From positions 390,001-422,000 of the forward strand of contig NZ_CP180230.1 of NCBI RefSeq assembly GCF_047555085.1: a DNA stretch of 32,000 bases, written 5' to 3'. Of this stretch, positions 139 to 32,000 are shown piece after piece (the first letter of the stretch is position 1; each line of letters begins with the position of its first letter). This stretch comes from Candidatus Saccharimonadota bacterium. GTDB taxonomy: Archaea; Nanohalarchaeota; Nanosalinia; Nanosalinales; Nanosalinaceae. Under the pieces are notes generated by a model. The model ran no database searches. It was not told the DNA's origin and saw only the letters and a program-made list of their open reading frames with translations. The position numbers were made by a program, and so were the translations under genes.

Positions 139-537
139 ATGGATCAGCAGAAGATGCAGCAGTACCAGCAACTTCAGCAGCAGGTAGAGGAGATGCAGGG
201 ATCCATGCAGCAGCTTGAACAGCGTATAAACGATGTAGAAGACGCTGTTGAAGGAGTTAGAGGTCTTGAAGAAGTTGAGGAAGGTGAAGAGATCCTTGCC
301 TCAATAGGTTCCGGTGCTTTCGCCATCGCCGAGCTGAAGAGCAGTGAGGAAGTTGTCACGAATATCGGAGGAGAGGCCTACGAAAGAAGAAAGCTGGATG
401 ATGCAGAAGACCTGCTTCAGCGTCACGTAGATGAGCTTGAAAATACTAAAAGCGAGCTTGAAGAGGATATAACTGAGATGCAGCAGCAACTTCAGCAGAT
501 TCAGGCAGAGATCCAGCAGCAGAGACAGGGAGAGTAA
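139..537 (+). CDS. pfdA: prefoldin alpha subunit
   Basis: 132 aa with Q/E-rich coiled-coil ends flanking a central beta-hairpin region (EILASIGSGAFAIAELKSSEEVVTNIGGEAYERR), the typical prefoldin alpha layout. It sits directly upstream of ftsY. Confidence 0.7.
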   Translation: MDQQKMQQYQQLQQQVEEMQGSMQQLEQRINDVEDAVEGVRGLEEVEEGEEILASIGSGAFAIAELKSSEEVVTNIGGEAYERRKLDDAEDLLQRHVDELENTKSELEEDITEMQQQLQQIQAEIQQQRQGE

Positions 538-542
538 ATTCC

Positions 543-1436
543 ATGCTTAAAGGCCTGAAAGACTCCGTAAAAGATCTTTCTGAAAACGTCAAGTCAGCGG
601 TAGGAGAGAAGGAACTGGATGAAGACACTCTTGAGCCGCTGCTGGAAGATTTCAGGCTTAAACTTCTGAAGAACAATGTTTCACTTGATGTAGCTGAAGA
701 TATAGAGAAAGGCCTCAAAGACAATCTAATAGATACAAAGGTGAAGAGAGGGAAAGTCGAGGAAAAAGTCGAGGAAGCATTCCGTGAGAAACTTGAGGAG
801 CTTCTTGACGACACATTTAACTTCGAGGAAGCTCTTGAAGAGGCCTCTGAGCCACCTGTTGTTTTCATGATAGGTTTCAATGGCTCGGGTAAGACAACTA
901 CGGCTGCAAAGCTTGCTGATTACCTGCAGGAAGATCTTGGTGAAGAAGTTGTCCTTGGAGCAGGAGATACATTTAGAGCAGCTTCTATAGAGCAGTTAGA
1001 GGAGCACGGCAATAATCTAGGAGTTAAAGTTGTTTCTCATGAGTACGAGTCGGATCCAGCGGCTGTAGCGTACGATGCTGTGGAGCATGCCGACAAGCAC
1101 GGTAAAGTTGCCATAGTTGATACAGCAGGTAGAAGCCACAGCGACAGAAATCTCATGGATGAGCTGCAGAAGATGATTGATGTCAACGAGCCGGATATAA
1201 CGTTCCTTGTTGTGGATGCGCTGGCTGGAAACGATATACTGGAACAGGCAGAGGCCTATGAGGGCATGTTCGATGCAATAATCGCTACAAAGATGGATAT
1301 CGATGAGAAAGGCGGTGGCATCGTCTCGATAAGTCAGAGATCAGGTAAGCCAGTGGCTTTCCTAGGTACAGGCCAGGACTACAACGAACTTGAAGACTTC
1401 AACAAGGAAGAATTCATCGACAGGATAATGGACTGA
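543..1436 (+). CDS. ftsY: signal recognition particle receptor FtsY
   Basis: SRP GTPase motifs GFNGSGKTTTAAKLA, DTAGR and TKMDIDEKGGG, with an N-terminal helical N domain. The start is 6 nt after the pfdA stop. Confidence 0.9.
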   Translation: MLKGLKDSVKDLSENVKSAVGEKELDEDTLEPLLEDFRLKLLKNNVSLDVAEDIEKGLKDNLIDTKVKRGKVEEKVEEAFREKLEELLDDTFNFEEALEEASEPPVVFMIGFNGSGKTTTAAKLADYLQEDLGEEVVLGAGDTFRAASIEQLEEHGNNLGVKVVSHEYESDPAAVAYDAVEHADKHGKVAIVDTAGRSHSDRNLMDELQKMIDVNEPDITFLVVDALAGNDILEQAEAYEGMFDAIIATKMDIDEKGGGIVSISQRSGKPVAFLGTGQDYNELEDFNKEEFIDRIMD

Positions 1437-1496
1437 GGCCTTGAAGTTAAATTTTTAGGCTAGTTCTGACAATTTTTCATAGAGGCAACTATTTTT

Positions 1497-2261
1497 ATGG
1501 CACAGATCGGTACTCTGAAGTTGAAATCTGATTCGGGTGTTGTTGAGGTACCGGTCTTCGAGCCGGGAGATGTAGGCCTTCCCGTGGTACGTGTACAGAC
1601 TGATTCAGGTACAGGAGCCTTGAACGTAGTTGATACAGGTGATGCAGAGCTTGATCAGCTTCGTGTACAGACATCTCAAGGAGTAAAGGCAGTCAGTACC
1701 ACGATAAACACCGTCTTCAGTTACGAGGATGATTTCACTACAGACACTACAGATAACTACTCTATAGAGCTTTCAAGCAGCAGTCCTTCATACTCGTATA
1801 GTTCATCAAACGATGCGATATACTTTGACACTACTGACAACGACCATGCCTACGTAAGGAAAACCTTCTCAAACATGTCTTCCAGCGGCTATGTCAAGAT
1901 AACAAACAATATCACAGGCGACGATCCCTACGGAGAAACAGTAGGCCTCTCAATCTACAACAGTTCAACAGGAGACCGTTACAGAGCAACTAACAGAGAC
2001 GGCAGCTACACTGAAGGCCTCTACAAGACAGTTAATGGTTCAACTACTGATTCGTTCACTCAGAACGGTTCAAGCAATCATTCGAGAAGAACTATAGAGA
2101 TGTGGTGGTCTCCGACACACCTGAAAGTCGCATTCAACGGCAACGTCCAGTGGGACGTTGACACCACGGATACAACAGATATTCATCCTGATACTCTGGA
2201 GATAAGATTAACTCAGATAAACACGTACCTGGAGTACATACAGCTGAACGATAACTATTGA
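1497..2261 (+). CDS. hypothetical protein: duplicated RVQT N-terminal motif and a S/T/N/D-rich C-terminal half
   Basis: 254-aa ORF with acidic composition like its neighbours. VVRVQTDSGTGA and QLRVQTSQGVKA form an internal duplication. No signal peptide. Family not recognised. Confidence 0.55.
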   Translation: MAQIGTLKLKSDSGVVEVPVFEPGDVGLPVVRVQTDSGTGALNVVDTGDAELDQLRVQTSQGVKAVSTTINTVFSYEDDFTTDTTDNYSIELSSSSPSYSYSSSNDAIYFDTTDNDHAYVRKTFSNMSSSGYVKITNNITGDDPYGETVGLSIYNSSTGDRYRATNRDGSYTEGLYKTVNGSTTDSFTQNGSSNHSRRTIEMWWSPTHLKVAFNGNVQWDVDTTDTTDIHPDTLEIRLTQINTYLEYIQLNDNY

Positions 2262-2292
2262 AGAAGACTGTTTAGAAATTCTGACTGGACTT

Positions 2293-2329
2293 GAAGGCCT
2301 CTGAAAAACTTTTTCAGGAATAGGCCTTC
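2293..2329. terminator. candidate bidirectional terminator between convergent genes
   Basis: GAAGGCCT (2293-2300) is the reverse complement of AGGCCTTC (2322-2329). These arms enclose a second inverted repeat, CTGAAAAA-c-TTTTTCAG (2301-2317), which gives T5 runs on both strands (archaeal oligo-T termination). The element lies between the stops at 2261 (+) and 2314 (-). Confidence 0.35.
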
Positions 2330-2649
2330 TGCTCGTCGAGCCTTTCCTTCATGGACTTTTCCAGTTCTTCCAGCTTGGATTTCAGTGGCTCGATATCTTT
2401 GTCGAAGCGATCCATCTTGATCTCTCCTTCGTCACTTCTCTCCTGGATTCTGTTCTTCCTCATAACTGTCAGGAGATGATTGACTTCTGCTACAAGACGC
2501 TCGTACTGCTTCAGCTCGGCCTCTATGTAGGAAATCTCTTCTCCAAGCTCTTCACGCAGCTCTTCGACGACTTCCTGTTTCATCTGTTGCTTGTCAACGC
2601 CGAACTTTCTTCTGACGGTCCTGTAGAACTTGTCCATTCCCATTTTCAA
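2314..2649 (-). CDS. hypothetical coiled-coil protein
   Basis: 111-aa ORF, E/K-rich with heptad-like sequence (EELREELGEEISYIEAELKQYERLVAEV). It is convergent with the 1497 gene. Confidence 0.5.
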   Translation of the reverse strand: MKMGMDKFYRTVRRKFGVDKQQMKQEVVEELREELGEEISYIEAELKQYERLVAEVNHLLTVMRKNRIQERSDEGEIKMDRFDKDIEPLKSKLEELEKSMKERLDEQKAYS

Positions 2650-2680
2650 TCACTGTAATTACCTATTACTCGTAAAAACC

Positions 2681-3229
2681 TTATAAGCTTTTTGAACTTT
2701 CATCGTCGCTATCATCTTTCAAAGTAGTCGGCACGACGACATCCATCTCTTCTGCCTGTCCCTGATCGTAGAAACGAGCAGTCACTGCACCAAGAACAGC
2801 ATCAAACTCACGTGAAGACTCGATACCCGAGGCCTCTACACCTAGAGACTCCAGAGATCTATCACTGTCCAGTGCCAGCTCTCTTCCGGATATAGCAGGA
2901 TCGAAACGGATGAACTCCGGCCTGTCTTCAGCAGCAAGACCTGCCTGAATACGTCTCTTCAAGTCCTGAAAACGCCTTACACGCTGAGTATCGTGAGAAG
3001 CCGGCGTAAAGATATGTCCTTCCTCCTGCAACTCCTCCTCTTCCTCGCTCAGTCCTCTACGTTCTTTCAGGCCTGTATTCACAGCCACTATGTTGGGCTG
3101 AGATTCGATTATTTTTTCAGCAAGCTCCTCGTTGGTTTCGAAACTGTAGCTCTCGACAGAATCCGAGAGAAATGCTACAGTGGATTCAGTGCTATCGTCC
3201 TCAGTCAGATCAATCCCGCAGTAAATCAT
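2681..3229 (-). CDS. hypothetical protein, possibly an RNase H-fold (DUF429-like) nuclease
   Basis: 182-aa acidic ORF. The N-terminal MIYCGIDL and a distal FDAVLGAVTA motif resemble RNase H-like nuclease families. This assignment comes from memory of the motifs only. Confidence 0.35.
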   Translation of the reverse strand: MIYCGIDLTEDDSTESTVAFLSDSVESYSFETNEELAEKIIESQPNIVAVNTGLKERRGLSEEEEELQEEGHIFTPASHDTQRVRRFQDLKRRIQAGLAAEDRPEFIRFDPAISGRELALDSDRSLESLGVEASGIESSREFDAVLGAVTARFYDQGQAEEMDVVVPTTLKDDSDDESSKSL

Positions 3230-3237
3230 AATTTAAT

Positions 3238-4104
3238 TTACACCTTGACTTTCTTCTTCAAAGCTGACTCGTGACTTTTCTCTATACTTCCTTTCCTGTT
3301 CTCACCTGTCGCAAACTCCATCAGGGAACGATTCTTCTCCTTCAACTCTATGATCTCCTCTTCCTCAAGATGATCCTCCAGAACCTGCAAAAAGTCAAGC
3401 AAGGCCTTGTTGTACTCCTGAGGCTTCTCAAAGAAACAGAAAGTTCCTGCATTCTCAAGCACGCTTATAGAAATATTAGGCCTCAACTCTTCAGCGAAGC
3501 TTCTGCTGGAGAAACGATCCTGTTCAGCGTGGATTGCCAGAGAGGTCTTTTCAGGCCTTGAAACACGGTAGTTATCAAGGAAAGTCCTGAAATCATCAAG
3601 ATCAGGCTTCTCAAAAGTATCGATAAACTCTCGTACAACACCGTATTCGGTTCTATCCGAGAAAAACATTTTTTTGGCGATCTTTGGAATACTGCCGATG
3701 CGGAAAAGCATGTTGATCAGTTTCTTCTGAGGAATCTTCGTGAAACGTCTTCTAGGACCTGTCAAAACAGTCGAAACAACATTTTCGTGATCCTCGAACT
3801 CCTGCATGAGACTGTTGCCAAACACGTGAGATACAAGAACAACGTTCTCGAACTCTTCCTGCTCCAGTATACTTTCAAGGGCCTCTTTCTCTCCCTCATA
3901 GTCCCTGAAACTTACTGTAGGCCTGAAACTGGCTGTCCTGAAACTTTTCGAGAAGTAGCGCAGCTGCTGCCTCCAGATATCCGGATTCAGGCCTCCGGGC
4001 ACAAATACTAGCTGTATCCTCGAATCCGTATCGGATTCGAAGTAGTGCATGTTCTCGCTGCCTACCCTGCTTAGAGAAAACTTCACGGTATTCACTATCT
4101 TCAC
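3238..4104 (-). CDS. alpha/beta-hydrolase-fold protein with a degenerate nucleophile elbow
   Basis: 288-aa ORF. LVFVPGGLNPDIW is oxyanion-region-like, and VVLVSHVFGNS sits where GxSxG is expected. The start is a GTG at 4104; an alternative ATG at 4050 would give MHYFESD. Confidence 0.45.
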   Translation of the reverse strand: MKIVNTVKFSLSRVGSENMHYFESDTDSRIQLVFVPGGLNPDIWRQQLRYFSKSFRTASFRPTVSFRDYEGEKEALESILEQEEFENVVLVSHVFGNSLMQEFEDHENVVSTVLTGPRRRFTKIPQKKLINMLFRIGSIPKIAKKMFFSDRTEYGVVREFIDTFEKPDLDDFRTFLDNYRVSRPEKTSLAIHAEQDRFSSRSFAEELRPNISISVLENAGTFCFFEKPQEYNKALLDFLQVLEDHLEEEEIIELKEKNRSLMEFATGENRKGSIEKSHESALKKKVKV

Positions 4105-4160
4105 CTCAAAACCTTTTATCCATTAACCCGTCTATAAACTATAATAACCCCCTTGTCGCC

Positions 4161-4514
4161 ATGAAACTTTCCAAGACCTTGGCTGAAGAAATAATCTGGC
4201 TGGCTGCAGAAGTCGTAGCCTTCTACATAGCAACACGTGTAAACCAGCTTACAGGCCTCTCAACAGCATTAATGACGTTTATAGCAGGTTCATGGCTTTT
4301 CTACAATCTTTCATCTTACGAAAGAATCTGGAACTCGATAGCCATGTTACAGGATCCGGCGAAAGCATTCCTGCTTTACTCTTCCGCAGCGACAGTATTC
4401 TTCGCATTGAAGTCCTATCCCTTCCAGAAACTTGTGATTGTTGCACTTGCCGCAGGATTCATAGGCTCCGCACTGGGAATATTTTTCCAGACCTACTGGA
4501 ACATCGGAGGATAA
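4161..4514 (+). CDS. small integral membrane protein
   Basis: 117 aa with 3-4 hydrophobic segments (IIWLAAEVVAFYIA, LMTFIAGSWLFY, LLYSSAATVFFAL, LVIVALAAGFIGSALGIFF). Confidence 0.55.
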   Translation: MKLSKTLAEEIIWLAAEVVAFYIATRVNQLTGLSTALMTFIAGSWLFYNLSSYERIWNSIAMLQDPAKAFLLYSSAATVFFALKSYPFQKLVIVALAAGFIGSALGIFFQTYWNIGG

Positions 4515-4549
4515 CACAGTTTTAACTTTCACCAATCAATTCCACAATC

Positions 4550-5842
4550 ATGTTTGACAGGATAAAGGAGTCGGTACAGAAGTTCTCATCACGCGGCGTC
4601 GCAGATAAAGAAGCCGTAGAAGAACTCGTAAAAGATATCCAGAGAGACCTGATGAGAGCAGACGTCGACGTCGAACTCGTATCAGAACTCAGCTCCGACA
4701 TACGGGAAGAAGCACTGAAAGAAGAAGTACCACAAGGCCTGTCAAGAAAAGAACACGTACTGAAAATAGTATACGACAGACTCGAAAAACTACTTGGAGA
4801 AGAAGCAGAAATCGACGAAGGCCCGCAGAAAATACTTCTATGCGGCCTCTACGGAGCAGGAAAAACAACTACAGCCGGAAAACTCGCCGACTTCTACAGG
4901 AAAAAAGAACAGAAAGTAGGAGTCATAGCAGCAGATACAGACAGGCCCGCAGCCTTTGAACAACTACAGCAGGTAGCAGAAGACGCCAACGCAGAATTCT
5001 ACGGACGAAAAGAAGCCGAAGATCCGGCGAAAGTCGTCGAAGAAGGAATGGAGGAACTCGACACCGATGTCACAATCGTCGACTCAGCCGGTAGAAACTC
5101 CCTTAACGACGAATTAAGGGAGGAACTGGAGGAGATCACAGACGTCTTCCAGCCGGACAAAAAATACCTTGTAATACCAGCGGATATCGGCCAATCAGCT
5201 CGAGAACAGACAGAGATGTTCGACTCCGCCGTAGGCCTGACAGGAGTCATCGTCACGAAGATGGATTCGTCGGCTAAAGGAGGAGGAGCGCTCGTCGCAT
5301 GTGCAAATTCAGAGGCCAGTGTGAAATTCATCGGAACCGGTGAAACACTTCCGGATCTGGAAGTCTACGATCCTGTCGACTTCGTATCCGACATGATGGG
5401 GCAGCCGGATCTCGAAAGTCTTCTTGAAAAGATACAGGAGCTGGACACCGATCCAGAGGCCATACTGGAGGGAGACTTCACGCTACACGACTTCAAGGAG
5501 CAGATGGAGTCCGTCACAGGATCAGGCCTCATGGAGGAGATGATGCAACAGCTACCTTTCTCCAAAGACAAGCTTCCAAGCAACATGGCCGATATGACGG
5601 AGGGAAAGATCCAGAACTACTCGATCATCATGGACTCGATGACGGATGAAGAGATGAAAGATCCATCCATGATCAAGGCCTCTCGCCGGGAAAGGATTGC
5701 AGCAGGATCAGGGACACAGCCAGGCGACGTCAAGGAACTAATCGATCACTACAGACAGGCCAAGAACATGGTGGACAAGTTCGACAAAGGCTCCATGCAG
5801 AGAGGCAACATGAAACAGATGATGAGCAAGATGGGCCTGTAA
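4550..5842 (+). CDS. srp54: signal recognition particle protein SRP54
   Basis: N domain, then G domain with GLYGAGKTTTAGKLA, DSAGR and TKMDSSAKGGGA, then a Met-rich M domain (MEEMMQQLPF, MKQMMSKMG). Confidence 0.92.
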   Translation: MFDRIKESVQKFSSRGVADKEAVEELVKDIQRDLMRADVDVELVSELSSDIREEALKEEVPQGLSRKEHVLKIVYDRLEKLLGEEAEIDEGPQKILLCGLYGAGKTTTAGKLADFYRKKEQKVGVIAADTDRPAAFEQLQQVAEDANAEFYGRKEAEDPAKVVEEGMEELDTDVTIVDSAGRNSLNDELREELEEITDVFQPDKKYLVIPADIGQSAREQTEMFDSAVGLTGVIVTKMDSSAKGGGALVACANSEASVKFIGTGETLPDLEVYDPVDFVSDMMGQPDLESLLEKIQELDTDPEAILEGDFTLHDFKEQMESVTGSGLMEEMMQQLPFSKDKLPSNMADMTEGKIQNYSIIMDSMTDEEMKDPSMIKASRRERIAAGSGTQPGDVKELIDHYRQAKNMVDKFDKGSMQRGNMKQMMSKMGL

Positions 5843-5881
5843 AAATTATTTATTACTCAAAGTTTTTCTTTAGAAAATTTT

Positions 5882-6196: not shown

Positions 6197-6313
6197 TTTT
6201 TATCCACTGCTTGCACCAAGTATTTTTCTCCCCTGAATCCCCCGAAAACTTCCCTGTAACCAATACAGTACTTTCCCCTAAATAAAAAACGTTCGCAAAG
6301 AAACGAACAAACT

Positions 6314-6856: not shown

Positions 6857-6869
6857 TTTTTATTTACAG
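6855..6869 (+). promoter_or_regulatory. TATA-like promoter element GATTTTTATTTACAG
   Basis: A/T-rich box about 27-35 nt upstream of where the LamG reading frame opens (6896). The identical 15-mer recurs at 24805-24819, upstream of another accessory gene. Confidence 0.4.
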
Positions 6870-6895: not shown

Positions 6896-7606
6896 ATCAT
6901 CACTATTGTAGGACACTGGCCTCTAGATGAAAGTTCCGGGAATACGGCAGTCGATTATTCCGTGAACAGTAATGATGGGACAATCAACGATGGTGGTGAC
7001 TCGACAGTTCCAGGAGCCTCTGGAATACTTGGGGAAAAGGCCTACAGCTTTGATGGTTCCAATGACTACGTTGGTATTGGAGCGAAAGATAGTCTTGATT
7101 TCGGGAACGGCTCTATGTCGATAGTTGCATGGTTCAGAACTCCAAGCAACACTCAACAGGGCAAGATTGTGAATAGAGGCCAGTCAGGAGCTTTTCCAAG
7201 TTCTTCTGGCTATTCGTTGCGTTTCTACGATAAATTCGGAGTCGCATTTACTGACGGAACTAATAATTCAAATGTGTATGTTTCCAGTGCTGGCGACGTA
7301 ACTGAAAACGAATGGCATCTCGGCGTAGGAATTCTGGACAGGAACGCACAGCAGACAAGACTTTTCCTTGATTCCCAGCTTATAGGGACATCAGATGCAT
7401 CATCCCTCGGAAGCATTTCAAATCCGGATGCAACAGCGGACATAGCTGTACTGAATAGAGGAAGTTACGGCGACAAATCCGAATTCTTCAACGGAAAAAT
7501 CCAGGAAGCAAGACTGTACAATCACGCTCTCACGCCCCAGGAAGTCCAGTATCTTTACAGCGTCGGAAGTAGAGGCCTGCATGTCTCCAGTGAAAGAACT
7601 CTGTAA
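6896..7606 (+). CDS. LamG / concanavalin-A-like lectin domain protein (Laminin_G_3-like), start codon uncertain
   Basis: The C-terminal FNGKIQEARLYNHALTPQEVQYLY is the hallmark Laminin_G_3 ending. The conserved N-terminal GHWPLDESSGNTAVDYS is encoded at 6911-6961, upstream of the first canonical start (GTG 6962). The frame opens at 6896, after TAG at 6893-6895. Confidence 0.7.
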   Translation: MITIVGHWPLDESSGNTAVDYSVNSNDGTINDGGDSTVPGASGILGEKAYSFDGSNDYVGIGAKDSLDFGNGSMSIVAWFRTPSNTQQGKIVNRGQSGAFPSSSGYSLRFYDKFGVAFTDGTNNSNVYVSSAGDVTENEWHLGVGILDRNAQQTRLFLDSQLIGTSDASSLGSISNPDATADIAVLNRGSYGDKSEFFNGKIQEARLYNHALTPQEVQYLYSVGSRGLHVSSERTL

Positions 7607-7742
7607 AAAAGTTTCGTGAGATTATCTGTCAACAGTCAGTAAAGGCCTTGAAGTAAGAAAAATTCTCGGGAGAAAAATTGTATCAACTTGCTGACCAGTT
7701 TTAAAGAACAAAGCCACAATATAATCTTATAGAGGCCTATTC

Positions 7743-8432
7743 ATGGTTTTGAAAAGTTATTATCCACTCAATGAGAGTTCCGGGAGTACGGCATACGATC
7801 ATTCCGGAAATGAAAATCATGGTGCGATAAATGCAGGGGCGCTTGGACAGCCGAGTGTTGCAGGTTCTACAGGTTTGAAATGTACTTCATCTTTAGAGTA
7901 CGTGGCACTGCCCTGGTATTTTGATAGCGTCCGATCTCATTCTCTAACTGTTAATCTATGGTTTAAGAGGACCAGTACTACGACAAGCCAGAGGCGGAGG
8001 ATCGTTTCTCACGACGCCAGCGAATACTACAGAATGGCTGTAGATAATGGCGATATTGAATGGTACGGCAGGGAGAGCAGTTCAACCGGTCAGAGGATTT
8101 ACTCTCCAAACTCTGTCCCCGTAGACGAATGGGTGATGTGGACGGGTATAATCGACTCAGATAAAGGCGAGTTACGACTTTACAAAAACGGCGAACAGGT
8201 ATCCTCAACAAGTGGCTCCTATAGCACATGGGGCAGCGGCATCACACGTTACGGCTTTCTGATGGACGGCAGTGAAGCAACTAACTTTAACGGATCCAGA
8301 AACGGTGACTATGCACGTGGCGTACTCTCAGAAGTAAGATACTATTATCGCCCCCTTACTACTTCAGAAATACAGTATCTTTACAGCGTTTCTCAGAGAG
8401 GCCTCCAAACTACTTCAAAGAAGTCCTCATGA
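7743..8432 (+). CDS. LamG / concanavalin-A-like lectin domain protein, paralog of the preceding gene
   Basis: N-terminal YYPLNESSGSTAYDHSGNENHGAINAG and C-terminal GVLSEVRYYYRPLTTSEIQYLYSVSQRGL parallel the 6896 gene. ATG start. No signal peptide. Confidence 0.75.
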   Translation: MVLKSYYPLNESSGSTAYDHSGNENHGAINAGALGQPSVAGSTGLKCTSSLEYVALPWYFDSVRSHSLTVNLWFKRTSTTTSQRRRIVSHDASEYYRMAVDNGDIEWYGRESSSTGQRIYSPNSVPVDEWVMWTGIIDSDKGELRLYKNGEQVSSTSGSYSTWGSGITRYGFLMDGSEATNFNGSRNGDYARGVLSEVRYYYRPLTTSEIQYLYSVSQRGLQTTSKKSS

Positions 8433-8976: not shown

Positions 8977-9017
8977 TTCCCTTTCTCCATAAAAGAATTC
9001 TTGAGTAAGGCCTTTTC

Positions 9018-10265: not shown

Positions 10266-10347
10266 ATCAGAGGCCTCTACTCGTTCGTATCGTCGCCGGG
10301 ACTAGGGCATAGTTAAAAAGATTTATCAACGATTTTAGTTCTATAAC

Positions 10348-12444: not shown

Positions 12445-12468
12445 GTAGGCCTCCAAAAATAGTATCCT

Positions 12469-20341: not shown

Positions 20342-20416
20342 GCCTCTAGATTTTCATGTTACTTCAGTACTTGAGATTTCGTCGAGTTTAAAAAAGTGGA
20401 TTACTATCGATAGTGT

Positions 20417-21673: not shown

Positions 21674-21720
21674 AGGCCTAAAAATAAAAGGCAGTGAAAC
21701 AAAGTCTGGCTTAGTAAATC

Positions 21721-24765: not shown

Positions 24766-24767
24766 GT

Positions 24768-24828: not shown

Positions 24829-27087
24829 ATGTTATTCATGTATAGGCATCTGGCTCCTGTTGCTTTAATCGCAGGCCTACTTCTTTTCTCAGTATCGGTT
24901 CAGGCCTATGGAGGAGATGGAACAGTTGATGTTTCCGGAAAGCCAGCGCCTACTACGGGTGTATGTAACGATGATCAAGACAACGATGACGATAATCTTA
25001 TAGATAGGACTGACACAGGATGTACGAAAGTGTACCAGTATGACAGATCCGAGTATGATATGAGGGATTCGGATCTAACATATCAACTCTACGGTGGAGA
25101 AGGCCCTGATACTACGGATCTTTCTGTATCTTATCCAGGATTTGTTGAGAGAAGTTTAGGCCTTAGAATAGAGGACTGTGATCCTGAAAGCGGTTACTGT
25201 TCGTACAATGAGGTTGTAGGCAACGATCCTTTGGTTGTGGAGCGGTGGATAGATAGCTTTGGATATCCACAATGGGCGGGAGGAGAACTGAAGAGTACCG
25301 GAGTTCAGAAGTATGATGCTTCTATTACTGATTATGTAGATCGTGAGGATGCTGAAAGAGATATGTCGGGTAGAGCAGCTGTTAATAATCCTTTACAGGG
25401 AGCCATATTCAGCAATCCGGAAGTCGAGACATGTGGTAATGGGGACAGAAACATGAATGAGGGGAAGAACGTAGGATGTCCTGAAGACTGGGGCTTCCTC
25501 GATGATCTAACTGTTGATGGAGAGACAAGGACTGCACAGCAATCCTCTAATGATATCACGGATGAGCTAAAAGACTCGTTTACTGTGGATGTCGGTATAA
25601 ATCATGGTGCTCCGGTTGAGCAGTCTGATCCTCCAACTTATGAGATGGATCTTCTGGGGCTTGAAGCTGGAGGAGAAGATACTATAAATATACAGTCTCC
25701 AGAGGGAAGGCCTAGAACTGAAGAGCTCTACGAACACGATGGTATTAGTGCAGCACCTGATTTCTTCGCCGATGGAAGGGAGATAAAAGTCGTTTACCCG
25801 TATGCTTCAGAGACGACGTATACCCAGGTCTCTGACGTTGATCTAGTGGAGTCAAGTATAACGCATTATACTCAGACCGGCTTCCGTGTTCCAACTTCAT
25901 GTGATTTCGGAGGTACTGATGGAACCAATGTTAGCTGCCAGTCAACCGGTAACTCTTACTGTTTGACCAGTGATGTAGTGACTAACAGTGTAAGAAATTA
26001 TTCGATTGCAAGCGATACCAGAGAAGTCCAGATTCCTACAAAGGCATACCGTACAGAGGCAACGGATGATCCTCTAAACAATCCCGGATATGTTGAAGAT
26101 ATTACTGACAGAGGCTTTACTGTAAATGTTGAACGGGATATAGAAACAGGTTGGGGAACGCACCCTGCAAATAACTGTCCTACAACTACCGATGAAATGG
26201 AGTGTGATTTCGAAGAAGGAGATTCCGATCCATGCTCACCTTCAGATTATGAATACATATGGACAGACAGCGCTCCGGATTATGATGGAGACGGTGAAGG
26301 AGGAGATTCTTACACTAGCACAGTAACACATGATACAGATATAGTATATGAAGACATTGAGTTCCGTGAAAAAGCAGTGTTCAGTACTGTTTACGAGGAC
26401 AATCAAAATCTGCCTTCGGAGGCCTCTTCCAAGGAAGCTTTATTCAATGGCCATTATAATCTTGACAATATAGTTTATAATGGACCTTACTATTCTCCTG
26501 AAACCAATTATCTAAACGATGACTTTGCTAACAGTCCTGCGGTCTCTTCTTCAAGTTTTGAGGTAACTGTCCAGGATGGAACATTCCATTCCAAGCGTGA
26601 CTATTACGGAGTGTTTGATGTAGATGGAACAAATGGATTCGGCGACTCTTTCATTGCTGTAAAGGAAGGAAGCAAAACTCAGAGCATTCCGGCATTTAAC
26701 AAAGAGACAGCTATCGTAAGTCCTTCAGGAGAAAAAGTCGGGAACGATGAAGGGTTCATGGAGGCCCAAGAGACTAATTTTGTGGATGTAAGCGAGTATT
26801 CTCCTCCAGGCCAGTGTCCTGACGGGATAATCTTCTGCGTTGCAGCTGTCGATCTATCTGTGAAAGAATGGAGCGACTGGGATAGCCCAACACAGCCAGA
26901 ATCCGAGTTTGAAACAATAGATACTATACATGTAAACGAGTCATTTGGCGCTTGCCGCAAGTATCAGGAGCTAATAGGCGGCGCCCACCAATCAATATTA
27001 AGATGCCAGTATGATTACGGGGAAGACTTCCCTAACGAGCCCGTTCCATTCCACAAGCCAAATGTAGTTGGAGGTGATGGCTCATAA
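24829..27087 (+). CDS. secreted acidic Cys-containing protein, unknown family
   Basis: 752 aa. Signal peptide LAPVALIAGLLLFSVSVQAYGG. An N-terminal Cys-bounded acidic loop, CNDDQDNDDDNLIDRTDTGC. No TM anchor. The start could be 24829 or 24838. Confidence 0.8.
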   Translation: MLFMYRHLAPVALIAGLLLFSVSVQAYGGDGTVDVSGKPAPTTGVCNDDQDNDDDNLIDRTDTGCTKVYQYDRSEYDMRDSDLTYQLYGGEGPDTTDLSVSYPGFVERSLGLRIEDCDPESGYCSYNEVVGNDPLVVERWIDSFGYPQWAGGELKSTGVQKYDASITDYVDREDAERDMSGRAAVNNPLQGAIFSNPEVETCGNGDRNMNEGKNVGCPEDWGFLDDLTVDGETRTAQQSSNDITDELKDSFTVDVGINHGAPVEQSDPPTYEMDLLGLEAGGEDTINIQSPEGRPRTEELYEHDGISAAPDFFADGREIKVVYPYASETTYTQVSDVDLVESSITHYTQTGFRVPTSCDFGGTDGTNVSCQSTGNSYCLTSDVVTNSVRNYSIASDTREVQIPTKAYRTEATDDPLNNPGYVEDITDRGFTVNVERDIETGWGTHPANNCPTTTDEMECDFEEGDSDPCSPSDYEYIWTDSAPDYDGDGEGGDSYTSTVTHDTDIVYEDIEFREKAVFSTVYEDNQNLPSEASSKEALFNGHYNLDNIVYNGPYYSPETNYLNDDFANSPAVSSSSFEVTVQDGTFHSKRDYYGVFDVDGTNGFGDSFIAVKEGSKTQSIPAFNKETAIVSPSGEKVGNDEGFMEAQETNFVDVSEYSPPGQCPDGIIFCVAAVDLSVKEWSDWDSPTQPESEFETIDTIHVNESFGACRKYQELIGGAHQSILRCQYDYGEDFPNEPVPFHKPNVVGGDGS

Positions 27088-30000
27088 ACTTCGATAAAGG
27101 CCTCAAAATCCTGATTCTGGCTTTAGTATTCATTACGGCAGTCCAGTTCGGTGCTTCCCAAGGAGCAGTCTTAGACACCAGAGATGAATACTGGATTTAC
27201 TTTGAAGGCCCCGAGGCTAATGAGCAGCTTGCAATGGATTATCCTAACGTTCTAGAAGGCCGGACAAGTTATGAGGATTCGTGCTACTTCAACAACACGG
27301 TTTATAGAGAGGGAGAAGTCAAAGATATAGGGCAAAAGATTGTAACTAATGATGGAGGTGCTGTCAGCTTTGAAGCAGGAGGCTGGCATCCGGATAAAGA
27401 AGTATGTCTGAACATCGGAGGCCAAGGAGATGATGTTGCATCCGGACAGAAAAGAGAAAGTGATAACTACCGTGGCGGAGACAAAGGAGGAGAATGGTGG
27501 GATCTTGATCAATGGGAAGTCACACAGTACCTGAGAAATAACGCAGGATCAGTCCACTCAGATGCATGGAGAGATTACTGGGTTGAACAGCCTGATTCAG
27601 CTTCCTCTCAGGACTCAACAGGTATAATAGAGGGAAGCGGTATAGCCATGGAGGATGACTGTTCAACTTTCCTTGAGTGTGAAGATATCCGCAGTAATAC
27701 AGGATTCGATGATCCATTTGCAGCTAACTTTACTGAAGGAAGTCTGGACGACGACAATAATATTGATACAGATACTCCTTTTTCGATAAGAGGCCTCAAT
27801 AACTATCATAATCGTGTACAGGCAGGAAACTCGACAGGACATCCTGACGGAAGTCAGGGATCAGGAAACACCCAGGATCAGGAAACACCTATAGAAGGCC
27901 TTCAGGATGAACCTCTTCAGAACAGTCATATTGATCCTGAAGACGACGAATGGGCTATGACTCCTACACTGGGTTACGTGATTGCAAATGATGGTACTCC
28001 GCTGAGGCCTGGAAAATGCTACGGTGCTGAAAGAGTTCAGGGAGTAGATAAGAACAAGAGACAGGCCACTTACGCCAACTCTTTTGCTAATGTTTCTCAA
28101 GAGTACGATGGAGGCCTCAGCAGTCAGAGCAGATTTAATTCTCTGGGACTGGCATTTCCTGAAGACTATTCTGAGGATGGTAACTGGATCAATCCAGATA
28201 ATGATTATCGGTCTGCTACGCTTGGAGGATTCTCATGTGATCTTACAGGTAAGGACTGGGGATTCGGTTTCTCAGAGGTTAACCAGTTGAACACCGATTT
28301 TGTCTGTCGTGAAGGCGACTGTGATAAAGAGGGTGATCCATACAATCCTGATGATAGTGGTTTCAATCCAGAGAATCCTCACAGTGTTTCTGCCGAGGCG
28401 GAGGATCTGAACTTTGATTACGCTAATGATCCTACTAGTCATGAACAGGATAATCTTGAGCAGTATCCTGATGCTTGTGGGGATGATCAGAATGAATATC
28501 TGATTCGTGAACACGCTGCTACTTACGGTGGAGAGAGCAATCCAAATCTTGAAGGAAGATCTGATTACTATGCTTGCGCTGACAGGCCTACGGACTGTGT
28601 ATTCGATGGAGAGGTCTACAGTCAGGGAGAGCTTGTGGATGTGCAGGGAGAAGGAGGGAGGGAGGCAGGAGTCAACTCAATAGATCAGGAAATCTGTGTT
28701 GATCTTGATTCCTCAATCCCTGGAGGAGAATGGGTAGATCCGGACAATGAGTCCATTAGAGAGTTCCTTATAGGAGATGGGACTAGAGATAACCCGGAGT
28801 ACTATGTCCGTGATGAAGAACCGATAGAAGGCCAGCCAGGACGCGTGGTCTGGCATGATGGGGATGATACTCCGGGAGCAAGAGAAGCAAGAATTTCTCC
28901 TTACAACCCTGCCGAGTTTGAAGTAGGATATGCATTGGAGGATGATTGTGATCCAGCACTCAGAGACAGTATAAACAGCGGATGTGATGATTCAGGCCTC
29001 TACGAGGAACTGATTCAAGGCCAGTTCGTATACTCGCCATTCAAGGAAGGTATGTACGCTGATGATGCAAACGTTTTCGAAGGCTTTGCAGTAAGAACAT
29101 ACGTTGGGGATGGGACAAGTGATGGAACAAGCGCTGAACATGGGGCCTCAAATGGTCAGGATGAGGAGAATACGGATGGCGTAGTCTTCGATTCTTCTGA
29201 TGAGTGGCCTACTGCTAATCTTAATGATTCAAGTATTGATAGACTGGAGGATACATGGGCAATCTCTAATTATTCATACCATCCTGTAGGCCCTACAGGC
29301 CATATATGGGAGAATGGATCATGCTATGGAAGATCGCCTCTTGATGCTGGAAACAGTCAAGGAGAGTACATAATAACTAAGAATGAGAAGGTGATGGGTA
29401 ACTCCTTCGCAAAAGCAGTTGACTTCAATGATGACGGTACTAAGGAAGGAGTCTGGGTTGATCCTGATATAACGAACAAGACAACTTTGACAGGAGGAAC
29501 GAGCTGTGCGATCAACGGAAACGACTGGGGAATAGGTTTCAATACAGGATCAGGTCTAACGGTTACCGATAACAATACTAATCCTAGATATGAGCCAGAG
29601 GATCTTCACGCTGCTACAGGAAACATTACTTTCGATATAAATTCCGATCCTGATGGCATAGGATCAGGTAGAAATCTCCAGCAGTACCCTGAGGCCTGTG
29701 GGGATGATCAGAACGAGTATCTGATCCGTGAACACATGGATAGTAGAGATGACACGGAGCAGAAGCCAAATCTTGGCCGTAAAAACATCTATGTCTGTGC
29801 TGATCGTATATCTGACTGCGCTTTCCACGGAGAAGTATACAGCGAGGGCCAGGTAGTGGATGTTCAGTCATACGGTAGAGAGGAACGTGGTTCTAACTCT
29901 GTAGATGAGGAAGTCTGCGTTGATGTTGATGAGACTGTTCCTGGAGGAGAATGGATTGATGTGGATAACGAATCTATCAATCAGTTGCTCAAAGGGGAGG

Positions 30001-32000
30001 AAGACGACGGAGAAACTTACACTGAGGACGATCCTGATACATACAACGGACTTGTAAGAGCTAATTCAAGCTATGATGGCGATGGCGTTAAATGGTTCAC
30101 AGATAGCTACGGGCCTGCTGCTGAGGTAGAGTTAACTCCTTACAATCCACTGGATTATTCTGATGGATATGCACTGGAGGATGACTGTGGGCCTGATGTA
30201 GAGTTCTGTGAGGACTCAGGCCTTGCAAATACTCATATGGAGGGGAGGGCGGTGTATTCATACTTTGAAGAAGGTAGGCCTGAAGATGACAGAATCAATT
30301 CTCTTGTTGAGGATGGTAGCGAGGATGAAATAGTTGCTGGAGAGGTGTTCACAGGAGTTTCTGTCAGGACATGGGTGGGATATGCCAACGGTACAGCTAG
30401 TTACGAGCATGGTGCCACAAACAATCAGGATGAGGAGAATACGGAAAATACTGTGTTTGATTCATCTGATAACTGGCCTACAGAGAACTTGAATGATTCA
30501 AGTATTGATAGACTGGAGGATACATGGGCAATCGCAAATACCACTGAGAAGGCTGTAGGGCCTACAGGAAGGCCTTATCCGGAAGGAAAGTGTTATGGTC
30601 GTAGCCCGCTAAGTGTCGATGATTACCAGGTAACTAAGAATGAGAAGGTGATGGGTAACTCCTTCGCAAAAGCCGTTGATATCAATGGAGATGGCACTTC
30701 CAGGAAGAAAGGTGTCTGGGTGAATCCTGATTCCACAGTTGACTCTGCTCTTACAGGAAATCTTTCCTGTGATCTAAACGTGACTGACTGGGGATTCGGA
30801 TATAATGCAAGTACTGATGCCGATTTACAGGTTATCCGTGGAGATGCAAGAGAGTTCGGATACGACAGGGATGATCCTCATGTTGTAGTCGGAGACATAC
30901 CTTTCGATATCAACTCGGATCCTAACGGCGTAGGAGAAGACGAAAATCTTCAGCAATACCCTAACGCATGTGGCGATGACAGAAACGAGTACCTTATCCG
31001 CGAACACCGTGATACCGCCGACAGCACCGAACAGATGCCAGATCTTACAGAGGACGATATATACGGCTGTACAGACAGGATCAGTGACTGTGTATTCAAT
31101 GGTTCCATATACAGCGAGGGCCAGGTAGTAGACATACAGTCATACGGTAGAGAGGAACGTGGAACCAACTCAATAGATGAAGAAGTCTGTGTAGATGTAG
31201 ATGAAAGTATTCCTGGAGGAGAATGGTACGATGTGGATAACGAATCACTGAACCAGTATCTGAAAGGGGAACAAGGCCTCTATACAGAGGATAATCCTGA
31301 TACGTACACCGGAGTGGTAAGGGAAAACGCAAGTTACAGCGGCGATGGCGTAAAGTGGTTCACAGATAGTTATGGGCCTGCAGAAGAAGTAGAAATCTCG
31401 CCGTTCAATCCTTTGAACTATTCTGATGGATACGCTTTGGAGGATGACTGTGGGCCGTCAATCGATTACTGTGAAGACTCTGGAGTGGAGGATACTCATT
31501 TCGAGCCTGATGCTGTGTACTCGTTCTTTGAGGAAGGGCATATAGGCGATGACAGGAGGCCTAGTCCGGAAGATGATACAAAGCCGGATCCGAACAGCGA
31601 CTACTTTGAAGCTATCTCTGTAAGAATGTACGTTGGATTTGCTAACGGTACTGCGTCAGCTGAGCACGGTGCTACAAACGGTCAGGATAAGGAGAACGTG
31701 CCAGATAATCTTGATTTCAACGTTACGAAGTGGGGTAAGACTGTATCGCTAAATGATTCTACGATTGATCCGCTTGAAGACACATGGGCTCTTTCAAACA
31801 GGACTTCTGCGATCGTTGGACCTACAGGAAAGGTCTACAGTGAAGGAAAGTGCTACGGACAGAACGTACTTGATCAACCCGACTACCAGCTTACAAAGGC
31901 TCAGAAAGCTGTAGGTAACTCGTACGCCATGACTGTTGACGTAAATGGAGACGGTACATCAAAGGAGAAAGGTGTATGGGTGAATCCGGATTCAACCGTG
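27078..32000 (+). CDS. giant secreted Cys-rich repeat protein, partial (runs off the right edge), no canonical start codon ahead of its signal peptide
   Basis: Frame 3 is open from the codon after TGA 27075-27077 to the window end (more than 1640 codons); I spot-translated about 0.5 kb at the 5' end and one full repeat unit, and the repeat anchors stay in frame. KGLKILILALVFITAVQFGASQG is encoded at 27096-27164. The first in-frame ATG is at 27234. It is absent from the ORF track only because it has no stop in the window. Confidence 0.8.
27945..32000 (+). repeat. tandem coding repeats of about 1.26-1.30 kb (about 420 aa): three full units and the start of a fourth
   Basis: Phase anchors EDTWA/DEWAM at about 27945, 29245, 30515 and 31775. 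YP.ACGDD.NEYLIREH at 28464, 29684 and 30957. C.F.G.VYS.GQVVD.Q...EVCVD.D...PGGEW.D.DNES recurs in each unit. About 8 conserved Cys per unit. A half unit is also present at 27280-27540. Confidence 0.85.

Follow-up and report, generated by a model that had tools for sequence, protein, structure and literature searches.

Why should a six-letter palindrome, AGGCCT, be scattered through 32 kb of archaeal DNA about 17 times more often than chance would place it? We examined a 32,000-nucleotide stretch (NZ_CP180230.1, positions 390,001 to 422,000; hereafter the window), which is core chromosome of a Nanohaloarchaeon, a small, salt-loving symbiotic archaeon, and which encodes SRP54, FtsY, PyrG and Pus10. 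The window is cellular and not viral, and the original prediction's reference to a putative host does not apply. The observation that prompted the analysis, a roughly 20-fold excess of AGGCCT, is confirmed. Its interpretation is supported only in part, as detailed below. We found no prior report of this enrichment.

Abundance and position of AGGCCT in the window

An exact count gave 112 AGGCCT sites in the interval 374–31562 (no strand assigned), against 6–7 expected, in agreement with the hand count and its first and last positions. The GC content is 45.4%, where about 44% had been estimated. The sites start at positions 374, 551, 710, 841, 1252, 1436, 1574, 1943, 2015, 2295, 2322, 2830, 3069, 3402, 3478, 3553, 3919, 3989, 4253, 4735, 5233, 5524, 5676, 5886, 6153, 6393, 6507, 6759, 6772, 7038, 7573, 7643, 7733, 8399, 9008, 9137, 9205, 9333, 9829, 9982, 10271, 10512, 10838, 11221, 11263, 11733, 11871, 12233, 12447, 12768, 12907, 12919, 13113, 13474, 13684, 14041, 14173, 14272, 14305, 14499, 14612, 14807, 14837, 15580, 15799, 15910, 16154, 16202, 16890, 17054, 17271, 17432, 17922, 18191, 18419, 19090, 19348, 19454, 19545, 20065, 20193, 20340, 20425, 21369, 21621, 21674, 21726, 23005, 23461, 23822, 23840, 24076, 24317, 24531, 24873, 24902, 25158, 25708, 26420, 27098, 27791, 27896, 28005, 28112, 28584, 28994, 29692, 30218, 30276, 30570, 31274 and 31557.

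To determine whether base composition could account for this number, we scored all 4096 hexamers against Markov models of increasing order. The expected counts are 6.1 (order 0), 6.7 (order 1), 19.4 (order 2) and 49.4 (order 3), and AGGCCT ranks first in all four models (z = 42.7, 40.7, 21.0 and 8.9, respectively). The next most frequent hexamers occur 58 times, and two of those are AGGCCT shifted by one base. The maximal-order (order 4) model, which the original prediction had proposed, gives 107.2 expected sites (O/E = 1.04). This does not refute the finding, because the 5-mers AGGCC and GGCCT are themselves made almost entirely of the hexamer and the model absorbs the signal; taken as a refutation test it would have given a false negative. 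A within-gene synonymous codon shuffle, also named beforehand as a way to overturn the claim, preserved protein sequence and codon usage and gave 14.1 ± 3.3 sites (maximum 25 in 1000 shuffles) against 102 observed in coding sequence; a version that also preserves dinucleotides was not run.

The sites fall in all three codon phases (20 as AGG-CCT, encoding R-P, 34 as xAG-GCC-Txx and 48 as xxA-GGC-CTx), in genes on both strands and at ten spacer or gene-boundary positions. Together with the codon shuffle, this distribution supports the claim that AGGCCT is a DNA-level signal and not a peptide motif. The ten noncoding or boundary sites (no strand assigned) comprise the nine originally listed plus 27098. 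The site at 1436–1441 begins with the last base of the TGA stop codon of ftsY (543–1436), and that at 2295–2300 lies between the convergent genes 1497–2261 (+) and 2314–2643 (−). The site at 7643–7648 is intergenic, downstream of 6962–7606, while the intergenic sites at 7733–7738 and 9008–9013 each end 4 nt upstream of an ATG, at 7743 and at 9018 (pus10), respectively. The intergenic site at 10271–10276 begins 6 nt after the pus10 stop codon and that at 12447–12452 begins 3 nt after the ksgA stop codon. The site at 20340–20345 overlaps the TAG stop codon of the SpoU-family methylase gene (19766–20341), the intergenic site at 21674–21679 immediately follows the TAA stop codon of 20417–21673, and that at 27098–27103 begins 11 nt after the stop codon of 24829–27087. 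The further claim that sites are denser in spacers is only weakly supported, with 5.6 against 3.4 sites per kb in the window and 3.97 against 2.64 per kb pooled over eight enriched loci (p = 0.04).

Occupancy, half-sites and phylogenetic distribution

To gain insight into how far the motif has spread, we asked what fraction of the peptide positions that can encode the site by synonymous choice do carry it. In the window 102 of 130 such permissive positions (78%) are occupied, compared to 55% and 43% in two other enriched loci, L006 and L009 (the latter from genome M3_22), and 3–12% in ten non-enriched loci. Occupancy is uniform between surface-type genes (0.81) and other genes (0.76). The housekeeping gene pyrG (CTP synthase; 12869–14434, +), which we used as the phylogenetic marker, has 9 sites in 10 permissive positions (5.75 per kb), and in the gene for a 1227-aa acidic surface-type protein (14983–18666, +) all 12 permissive positions carry the site. 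A small MTS-domain (NPPY) methyltransferase gene next to pyrG (14431–14949, +) has 4 sites in 5 permissive positions; we considered it as a possible determinant of the trait and rejected it because it is present in enriched and non-enriched relatives alike. At permissive positions shared between loci, co-occupancy equals the product of the two occupancies, with 7 observed against 7.5 expected for L030 (an independently enriched locus), 10 against 8.7 for L006 and 8 against 6.7 for L009, which indicates a global force and not conserved functional sites.

The protein sequences themselves have been altered. Over identical aligned codons the window has 72 permissive peptides against 41 in L035, 76 against 36 in L025 and 63 against 23 in L005 (p = 2e-4 to 5e-8), about twice as many as these non-enriched orthologues. 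In contrast, it has 64 against 66 in L030, with only 16 positions shared.

The original prediction held that the signal is specific to the full hexamer, and its counts of the outer one-off variants were close: AGGCCA/TGGCCT occur 28 times (about 24 estimated), AGGCCC/GGGCCT 25 times (about 24) and AGGCCG/CGGCCT 9 times (9). That reading is, however, too strong. Compared to non-enriched relatives the outer one-off variants are themselves enriched 2–14-fold, while the inner ones are depleted to 0.25–0.85. Depletion of the C-to-T products (AGGCTT 0.53, AGGTCT 0.60) is no stronger than that of the other inner variants. GGCC occurs at 3.6–6.4 per kb in enriched loci against 1.5–1.6 per kb in non-enriched ones, and the A-flank frequency is 54–88% against about 33%. 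The hexamer count equals the product of two independent half-site preferences on a GGCC core (107.6 expected against 112 observed), and the same holds in L006 and L009. GGCC with neither flank correct occurs at 0.5 per kb in the window against 0.72 per kb in relatives. No conserved flank is seen beyond a weak G at position −1.

We also found interference between neighboring sites. Sites less than 50 bp apart are half as frequent as expected, with pair ratios of 0.50 and 0.59 below 50 bp and about 1 beyond, and unoccupied permissive positions cluster near sites (48 against 35.5 expected, p = 0.0025). Spacing is not regular overall, as the CV of gaps is 0.79–1.47 across loci.

The trait is patchy and has arisen several separate times. 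The PyrG tree shows at least four enriched clades, three of which have a non-enriched sister at 94–100% bootstrap. Neither this distribution nor the near-saturation of synonymous opportunity, the effect on proteins and the short-range interference had been anticipated by the original prediction.

Possible origins of the enrichment

The data imply a directional process, as originally proposed. Our preferred explanation, which we hold tentatively, combines two candidates already named, a methylation-based self mark and a repair or conversion bias. In this view AGGCCT is a highly iterated palindrome of certain Nanohaloarchaeal lineages, in which a genome-wide process converts near-sites into sites faster than mutation destroys them. 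A lineage would acquire, by horizontal transfer, an orphan Type II cytosine methyltransferase that recognizes AGGCCT or its GGCC core, and repair or recombination that reads the methyl mark would then resolve mismatches in favor of the strand carrying, or creating, a methylatable site, a ratchet of the kind Elhai proposed for cyanobacterial HIPs (PMC4390886). Each flank of a GGCC core would be driven independently to A in all DNA of the cell, coding or not. The process would saturate at about 45–80% of the positions the encoded protein tolerates and would also fix amino-acid changes that create new R-P, [E/Q/K]-A-[S/L/Y/F/C/W] and x-G-L peptides. Our analysis demonstrates the enrichment and its DNA-level nature, the saturation, the half-site independence, the effect on proteins, the uniform action across gene classes, the patchy phylogeny and the short-range interference, while the link to a methyltransferase and the repair or recombination step are inferences.

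Several lines of evidence favor this chain. The patchy phylogeny is the pattern expected for a mobile determinant such as a methyltransferase, and a palindromic 6-mer is the typical target of a Type II enzyme; AGGCCT-specific cytosine methylation is documented in Alcanivorax borkumensis (PMC12128166). The concentration of one-off variants at the outer positions is the same bias of 1-nt deviations toward the first and last nucleotides that Elhai reported for HIP1, and his ratchet predicts it. In a REBASE-based survey, the only complete enriched genome, M3_22, is reported to have exactly one R-M-related gene, a Type II m4C methyltransferase that is not in any large archaeal methyltransferase cluster, with no restriction enzyme and no Vsr nuclease (PMC10609329); this gene was not examined here, its specificity is not known, there are no methylation data, and the link is not tested. 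By extrapolation there would be about 3000 sites per roughly 1-Mb genome, too many for each to be held by individual selection in a small symbiont, which favors a drive.

Other findings weigh against it. No DNA methyltransferase gene was recovered from any enriched genome, and the 139 kb examined contains none. Because no Vsr is predicted in M3_22, a classical very-short-patch mechanism is not supported; whether Nanohaloarchaea have MutS/MutL or NucS was not determined. The C-to-T products are depleted no more strongly than the other inner variants. A StuI-type system in Alcanivorax does not cause enrichment (1674 sites in the genome), so a methyltransferase alone is not sufficient. For HIP1 itself, Xu et al. 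argue for selection over biased repair (PMC5861425), and the interference below 50 bp is not predicted by a purely site-autonomous repair bias.

A DNA uptake or recombination-promoting self tag, analogous to USS/DUS or Chi and also among the candidates originally listed, remains a live rival although we consider it unlikely. Cells would preferentially import or recombine DNA carrying the motif, which would spread through the population by a transformation or recombination drive, with methylation serving or not serving as the recognized mark. The uniform, non-site-specific accumulation, the density in spacers at least as high as in genes and the reshaping of protein sequences are all expected of such a drive, and USS have been reported to co-evolve with proteomes. 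Recent work reports that HIP1 raises natural transformation up to more than 100-fold in a methylation-dependent way (bioRxiv 10.1101/2024.09.10.611283) and that HIP1 abundance correlates with uptake machinery (bioRxiv 10.64898/2026.06.24.733823). The same hexamer in at least four separate lineages could reflect a shared exchange community. However, a 6-bp palindrome discriminates poorly, as relatives and other DNA carry 0.1–0.4 sites per kb. Competence and DNA-import genes were not examined, and we know of no natural transformation in Nanohaloarchaea. The motif also lacks the length, asymmetry, extended flanks and close pairing of known uptake sequences (see below).

Somewhat less likely still, the sites may bind an abundant dimeric protein, such as a nucleoid-organizing, segregation or silencing factor, and be maintained by selection for dense coverage of the chromosome. 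A palindrome suits a symmetric dimer, independent half-site contributions resemble additive binding energy, and mutual exclusion within about 50 bp, but not beyond, fits a protein footprint or a diminishing return from a second nearby site; Xu et al. favored a chromosome-structure role for HIP1 (PMC5861425). With about 3000 sites by extrapolation, each would carry a minute selective value in a reduced symbiont, which by inference makes 78% occupancy and amino-acid replacements in housekeeping proteins hard to achieve by selection alone. Moreover, individual sites are not conserved beyond equilibrium occupancy, the spacing is irregular, and sister lineages with orthologous gene sets do without the motif.

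A by-product of codon usage, dipeptide composition of acidic halophile proteins, base composition or assembly error is refuted, despite the order-4 expectation, which is circular, and the commonness of peptides such as E-A-S and x-G-L in acidic proteomes, by the synonymous shuffles, by equally acidic relatives with similar GC and orthologous genes that have only 0.07–0.38 sites per kb, by sites at least as dense in noncoding DNA and by the same signal in independent assemblies from different projects.

Comparison with other iterated and methylated motifs

The original prediction knew of no described function for the motif, which overlooks a close precedent, the still-unexplained HIP1 (GCGATCGC) and alternate HIPs of cyanobacteria and their link to orphan methyltransferases (PMC4390886; PMC5861425). 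The AGGCCT enrichment matches these HIPs and is an archaeal counterpart of them. Both are short G+C-rich palindromes with 15- to 300-fold over-representation at about one site per few hundred to 1000 bp, and both occur in all reading frames and in spacers, with one-off deviants concentrated at the outermost positions, an inner core that is not over-represented outside the full context and exceptional variants that occur sporadically across the phylogeny. An association with orphan methyltransferases is documented for HIPs and only suggested here for M3_22, and the cognate enzyme has not been identified. The archaeal motif differs in sequence and length (6 bp against 8 bp) and in its domain, being found in a DPANN symbiont with a genome of about 1 Mb, and its density is higher (2–3.5 per kb). 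HIP1 is ancestral and nearly universal in its phylum, whereas AGGCCT enrichment is patchy, and Xu et al. report conservation of individual HIP1 sites, which we do not see beyond equilibrium. Interference is seen here below 50 bp; periodicity at 10–90 kb was not measured in the 32-kb window.

The DNA uptake sequences of Pasteurellaceae (USS) and Neisseriaceae (DUS) are likewise short motifs over-represented genome-wide in genes and spacers, plausibly spread by a molecular drive and able to shape encoded peptides. They are 9–12 bp, non-palindromic, have extended flanking consensus and often occur as inverted pairs in terminators, whereas AGGCCT is a 6-bp palindrome without extended consensus and its close pairs are depleted. 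Dcm/Vsr very-short-patch repair in E. coli (CCWGG excess, CTWGG deficit) is a methyltransferase-linked repair bias that raises the frequency of the methylated palindrome and lowers near-cognate variants. Its effect in E. coli is modest, not 17-fold, and it acts only on T:G mismatches. In the archaeal loci the C-to-T products are not more depleted than other inner variants, and the flanking A/T positions are driven too, which a T:G-to-C:G repair cannot do. Finally, StuI-type restriction-modification systems such as M.AboORF2079P/AboORF2079P of A. borkumensis share the recognition sequence, with documented cytosine methylation on both strands (AgGCcT; PMC12128166). A complete R-M system normally goes with neutral or reduced site frequency (in Alcanivorax, by our estimate, roughly 0.5 per kb), while here there is 17-fold enrichment and the one surveyed enriched genome has no predicted restriction enzyme.

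Abundance and anatomy of the AGGCCT signal

To determine whether the abundance of AGGCCT is real, we counted the hexamer exactly and compared it with a series of null models. The window contains exactly 112 sites, at the positions listed in the original prediction, in DNA of 45.4% GC, and the observation is thus confirmed. Expected counts are 6.1 from base composition, 6.7 (order 1), 19.4 (order 2) and 49.4 (order 3), and in the ranking of all 4096 hexamers, which had been proposed in advance as a possible refutation, AGGCCT comes first under all four models, the runners-up being its own one-base shifts. The earlier estimates for the outer one-off variants were also close, the exact counts being 28 for AGGCCA/TGGCCT, 25 for AGGCCC/GGGCCT and 9 for AGGCCG/CGGCCT. 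The maximal-order Markov model, likewise suggested beforehand, gives an observed/expected ratio of 1.04, but this model is blind here because 112 of 152 AGGCC and 112 of 134 GGCCT belong to the hexamer itself, and it was set aside as uninformative. A second palindrome, TCCGGA, is the next most frequent palindromic hexamer (27 sites against about 6 expected), but it reaches only about twice the density in relatives, is inconsistent across enriched loci (0.06–0.84 per kb) and is probably a codon or peptide effect.

The window is 94% coding, as judged by greedy longest-ORF gene calls, and encodes very acidic proteins, including prefoldin α, FtsY, SRP54, Pus10, L21e, RpoF, KsgA and CTP synthase, together with a SpoU-family methylase, a small MTS-domain methyltransferase, a metallophosphoesterase, Laminin-G-like proteins and several large surface-type proteins. 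Relatives identified with SRP54 and PyrG are Nanohaloarchaea. A search of the phage collection returned no match, no tRNA and no Rfam hit was found that could explain the sites as RNA genes or structured RNAs, and composition is uniform. Thus, the window is core chromosome of a Nanohaloarchaeon and not a virus.

The sites occur in all three codon phases (20, 34 and 48), on both strands and at 10 spacer or boundary positions. A codon shuffle had been named beforehand as a test; the one performed here, which exchanges synonymous codons within each gene and does not also preserve dinucleotides, gives 14.1 ± 3.3 sites (maximum 25) against 102 observed (z = 26), and a codon or dipeptide artefact is rejected by these shuffles and by comparison with relatives. 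More directly, the encoded proteins offer 130 places at which AGGCCT could be written by synonymous choice (R-P, [E/Q/K]-A-[S/L/Y/F/C/W] and x-G-L), and 102 of these (78%) carry the site. Occupancy is the same in surface-type genes (47 of 58) and in other genes (55 of 72), and differences in density between genes come only from the number of permissive peptides that they contain. Spacers are at least as dense as genes, with 5.6 against 3.4 sites per kb in the window and 3.97 against 2.64 per kb pooled (p = 0.04). The spacer sites abut or overlap stop codons, or lie a few bases before start codons; they are single and are not parts of longer hairpins.

The signal consists of a GGCC core with two flanks that behave independently. 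GGCC is found at 5.9–6.4 per kb in the window and in two enriched loci from other assemblies, L006 and L009, against 1.6 per kb in non-enriched relatives, and the base 5' of GGCC, symmetrised over both strands, is A in 75%, 65% and 54% of cases, respectively, against 34%. The hexamer count equals the product of the two flank frequencies (107.6 against 112, 39.6 against 39 and 40.0 against 41), while GGCC with neither flank correct is not enriched (0.5 against 0.72 per kb). Relative to non-enriched relatives, the outer one-off variants are enriched 14-fold (AGGCCC/GGGCCT), 3.1-fold (AGGCCA/TGGCCT) and 2.2-fold (AGGCCG/CGGCCT), whereas all inner variants are depleted, at 0.25–0.85. The original interpretation is therefore partly supported: the claim that the signal is specific to the full hexamer needs qualifying. 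Beyond the hexamer there is only a weak G at position -1, no flanking base exceeding 39–41%.

To examine spacing, we analysed the gaps between sites in all eight enriched loci. Gaps under 50 bp are rarer than the Poisson expectation in each of them (pooled, 21 observed against 49 expected, p = 2e-6). Against a stricter null that permutes occupancy among the actual permissive positions, close pairs are still depleted (20 against 34.9, p = 5e-4), and unoccupied permissive positions lie preferentially within 50 bp of a site (48 against 35.5, p = 0.0025). The pair-distance ratio is 0.50 at 0–25 bp, 0.59 at 25–50 bp and about 1 beyond; pairs closer than about 9 bp may be sequence-incompatible, but the 25–50 bp bin is free of that caveat. 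Regular spacing is not supported overall (coefficient of variation, CV, of gaps 0.79–1.47), and only this short-range exclusion is seen. The highest CV, 1.47, belongs to the enriched locus L029, which has an unusually long AGGCCT-free stretch (a gap of 2524 bp) that was not examined further but could mark recently acquired DNA that has not yet equilibrated.

Distribution among lineages and effects on proteins

We next compared 35 nanohaloarchaeal or related loci. Enrichment is present in the window (3.5 per kb) and in seven further loci from other assemblies: L013 and L014, the closest relatives at 83% PyrG identity (1.9 and 2.45 per kb), L006 (2.5 per kb), L009, which is strain M3_22 with complete genome CP046106 (1.9 per kb), and L029, L030 and L031, at about 62% PyrG identity (2.7–3.35 per kb, A-flank 0.82–0.88). 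For these enriched loci only 12–32 kb per genome was examined, not whole genomes. All other loci have 0–0.4 per kb, including L015, L016 and L035, at 78–80% identity, and NAR1. On a bootstrapped PyrG neighbour-joining tree, three enriched clades each have a non-enriched sister, with support of 94 for the sister of the window clade, 99 for L006 with its sister, and 100 for the L029–L031 clade and its sister; L009 is a fourth, unresolved lineage. The outgroups are not enriched. Thus, the trait has been gained at least about four times, or lost many more; synonymous sites are saturated at these distances, so relics do not tell the two apart. A mutation spectrum was sought from close genome pairs, but L013 and L014 differ by only 6 SNPs in 7.4 kb and other pairs are 85% identical or less, leaving no usable divergence.

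At window sites aligned to relatives, most aligned peptides are unable to encode AGGCCT at all (35 of 63 in the enriched sister L014 and 43 of 60 in the non-enriched L035). Over exactly the same aligned codons, the window has about twice as many permissive peptides as each non-enriched relative, with 72 against 41 in L035 (p = 2e-4), 49 against 27 in L015 (p = 9e-4), 76 against 36 in L025 (p = 1e-6), 63 against 23 in L005 (p = 5e-8) and 59 against 22 in L003 (p = 1e-7). Against the independently enriched L030 the counts are equal (64 and 66), but only 16 positions are shared. The force has therefore fixed amino-acid replacements in housekeeping proteins, convergently and at different positions in different lineages, and roughly half of the site-permitting peptides in the housekeeping genes appear to have been created by it, a striking case of a DNA-level force overriding protein evolution. 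Where two enriched genomes share a permissive position, both carry the site about as often as independent occupancy predicts (7 against 7.5, 10 against 8.7, 8 against 6.7 and 21 against 17.8), so there is no sign of conserved, individually functional sites.

Candidate determinants, known systems and possible causes

To search for a determinant we scanned the available DNA from enriched genomes, and none was found in it. Motif scans for m5C and N4/N6 methyltransferases and for Vsr found none in 139 kb of enriched DNA. The small NPPY MTS-domain methyltransferase beside pyrG, whose gene overlaps the pyrG stop codon by 4 bp (ATGA, 14431-14434), is rejected because it is present in enriched and non-enriched lineages alike, the pyrG–MTS gene pair being conserved across essentially all nanohaloarchaeal loci examined. 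The only PF01555-like (DPPY … LDPFNGSG) putative DNA methyltransferase ORF detected by motif scan in the first 35 loci lies in L034 (13372–14307), a non-enriched outgroup archaeon, and was judged too distant to be pursued. No gene is shared by independent enriched clades and missing from non-enriched loci, except one ORF of about 100 aa, next to pyrG in L006 and L009, with no Pfam match.

Published data offer a candidate. A REBASE-based survey of 519 complete archaeal genomes includes M3_22 and lists for it one R-M-related gene, an orphan Type II methyltransferase predicted to make m4C, with no restriction enzyme and no Vsr; the gene, whose specificity is unknown, belongs to none of the large archaeal methyltransferase clusters, including the haloarchaeal CTAG group (PMC10609329). 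In haloarchaea, CTAG is the target of a persistent orphan m4C methyltransferase and is generally avoided (PMC10609329), and in the window CTAG is strongly under-represented, with 32 observed against about 120–130 expected (observed/expected about 0.25), or 1.0 per kb against 2.6 per kb in non-enriched nanohaloarchaeal loci; CGCG (7 against 41–83) and GCGC (24 against 46–83) are also low. AGGCCT-specific cytosine methylation exists elsewhere, as the StuI-type system of Alcanivorax borkumensis methylates AgGCcT, although that genome shows no enrichment (PMC12128166). The published methylome of another nanohaloarchaeon, Ca. Nanohalococcus occultus, shows GDGCHC and not AGGCCT (PMC11001535). We found no prior report of the enrichment and no paper that combines Nanohaloarchaeota or Nanohaloarchaea with AGGCCT.

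The closest precedent is the Highly Iterated Palindromes (HIPs) of cyanobacteria (Elhai 2015, PMC4390886). Features shared with these include a 15- to 300-fold excess of a short G+C-rich palindrome, presence in all frames and in spacers without explanation by peptide or codon usage, one-off deviants biased to the outer nucleotides, and a core that is not enriched outside the full context. In cyanobacteria, sporadic alternate HIPs each have a cognate methyltransferase, and the proposed methylation-dependent repair ratchet, which builds each flank in a separate round, predicts the flank independence seen here. AGGCCT shows every property of the HIP class that we examined; whether the carrying genomes encode a methyltransferase specific for the palindrome or its core was not assessed beyond the loci and survey described above. 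The present case is not HIP1 itself, which is GCGATCGC with embedded GATC/CGATCG methylation sites, as the motif differs, CGATCG occurs only twice in the window and the organism is an archaeon. What is new is a HIP-like palindrome in DPANN archaea, with replicated origins that make the mechanism tractable.

The motif does not fit DNA uptake sequences, a complete StuI-type restriction-modification system or oriented chromosome signals, and no fit to Vsr-type repair was shown. DNA uptake sequences (USS/DUS) have a non-palindromic core of about 9–12 bp with conserved flanks and frequent closely spaced inverted pairs acting as terminators, whereas AGGCCT is a 6-bp palindrome whose flanks are weak, whose pairs closer than 50 bp are depleted about two-fold and whose intergenic sites are single; an uptake receptor or competence machinery was not sought in whole genomes, and none is seen in the window. 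For a Dcm/Vsr-type very-short-patch footprint, the C-to-T deamination products are at 0.53 (AGGCTT/AAGCCT) and 0.60 (AGGTCT/AGACCT), values that are not lower than those of other inner variants such as AGGGCT/AGCCCT at 0.25 and that do not settle the matter either way; the presence of a Vsr gene was judged only from the survey (V = 0 for M3_22) and from a Vsr-like motif pattern, which found nothing in the loci examined. A Type II restriction-modification target would be neutral or avoided beside its cognate endonuclease, but the site is 17-fold enriched and the survey lists no restriction enzyme in M3_22. Finally, oriented chromosome signals (Chi, KOPS, AIMS) are strand-skewed and non-palindromic, and AGGCCT, being its own reverse complement, is unable to carry orientation.

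The explanation that we favour, tentatively, is a horizontally acquired orphan cytosine methyltransferase coupled to biased repair or recombination, acting as a genome-wide molecular drive; the enrichment, its effect on proteins and its patchy distribution are results of the analysis, whereas the methyltransferase link and the repair or recombination step are inferred. Two rivals remain live, although we regard both as unlikely. The first is an uptake or recombination tag, and the second, slightly less likely overall, is a set of binding sites for an abundant dimeric protein, the rival best supported by the 50-bp interference. A compositional artefact is excluded. The cause of HIP1 is itself still contested, as selection and chromosome structure have been proposed (PMC5861425), and more recently methylation-dependent enhancement of transformation and recombination, and a correlation with DNA-uptake machinery, have been reported. 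A further reading, which we consider unlikely but which the data do not rule out, is that AGGCCT, probably in methylated form, is a transmissible self tag for DNA exchange among Nanohaloarchaea, an archaeal uptake or recombination signal whose determinant moves horizontally, so that each lineage receiving it would rewrite its whole genome, proteins included, within the time separating sister clades. The four or more independent conversions would then be natural replicates that reveal the machinery and, by analogy, could also explain what cyanobacterial HIP1 is for.

Hyper-abundant palindromes have been an open problem in cyanobacteria for about 30 years, with selection, biased repair and DNA uptake still debated, and the present case is a second, independent system in a different domain of life. 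The genomes are about 1 Mb with very few R-M genes (one in the single surveyed genome), and the trait has switched on or off at least about four times between close relatives, a layout well suited to phylogenetic profiling, as the determinant should be among the few genes shared by enriched clades and missing from their sisters. If the cause is an orphan m4C methyltransferase coupled to repair, it would point to a methyl-directed repair or recombination pathway in DPANN archaea. The motif also offers a practical marker for binning nanohaloarchaeal lineages, for spotting recently acquired DNA and possibly for linking viruses or plasmids to hosts.

Viral contigs and other features of the loci

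To look for AGGCCT-dense DNA in viruses we scanned IMG/VR contigs with a three-site pattern; the hits inspected were mostly chance hits or tandem repeats. At least three non-halophilic, phage-like contigs (GC 42–47%, proteins not acidic), L196 (12.5 kb), L116 (6.8 kb) and L176 (4.6 kb), also show AGGCCT excess. L196 has 21 sites against 2.6 expected, AGGCCT is the top hexamer in L176, and all three have the same A-flank bias on GGCC (0.59–0.64). The enrichment may therefore exist outside Nanohaloarchaea, in an unidentified, possibly marine, host, although some bias applies because the contigs were ascertained by the three-site pattern. L196, the one examined for genes, encodes phage structural genes (SU10 adaptor) and no methyltransferase. 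In another IMG/VR contig, L115 (63% GC), a 15/30-bp tandem repeat at 2071-2752 carries AGGCCT in every unit (25 copies); this is a repeat array, unrelated to the dispersed enrichment.

The right half of the window is dominated by very large acidic, D/T/S/N/G-rich secreted or surface-type proteins (14983-18666, 21721-23448, 24829-27087 and 27234-32000), the last an ORF of more than 1589 aa that continues beyond the window end. These may be cell-surface or host-interaction proteins of the kind described in Nanohaloarchaea, and they have fewer permissive peptides but the same site occupancy. Two adjacent paralogous proteins, at 6962-7606 and 7743-8432, share similar C-termini (…EVQYLYSVGSRGL… and …EIQYLYSVSQRGL…); the first matches the Laminin_G_3 / concanavalin-A-like lectin family, the second was not scanned, and they have no homologue in the non-enriched loci examined. 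In L009 (M3_22, CP046106), a lineage-specific gene cluster at 1355-5322 looks like a diversity-generating retroelement, with a 427-aa protein bearing a C-terminal FGE-sulfatase-fold domain (the likely variable target), a bAvd accessory protein and a reverse transcriptase, and it is absent from the window and from the other loci.
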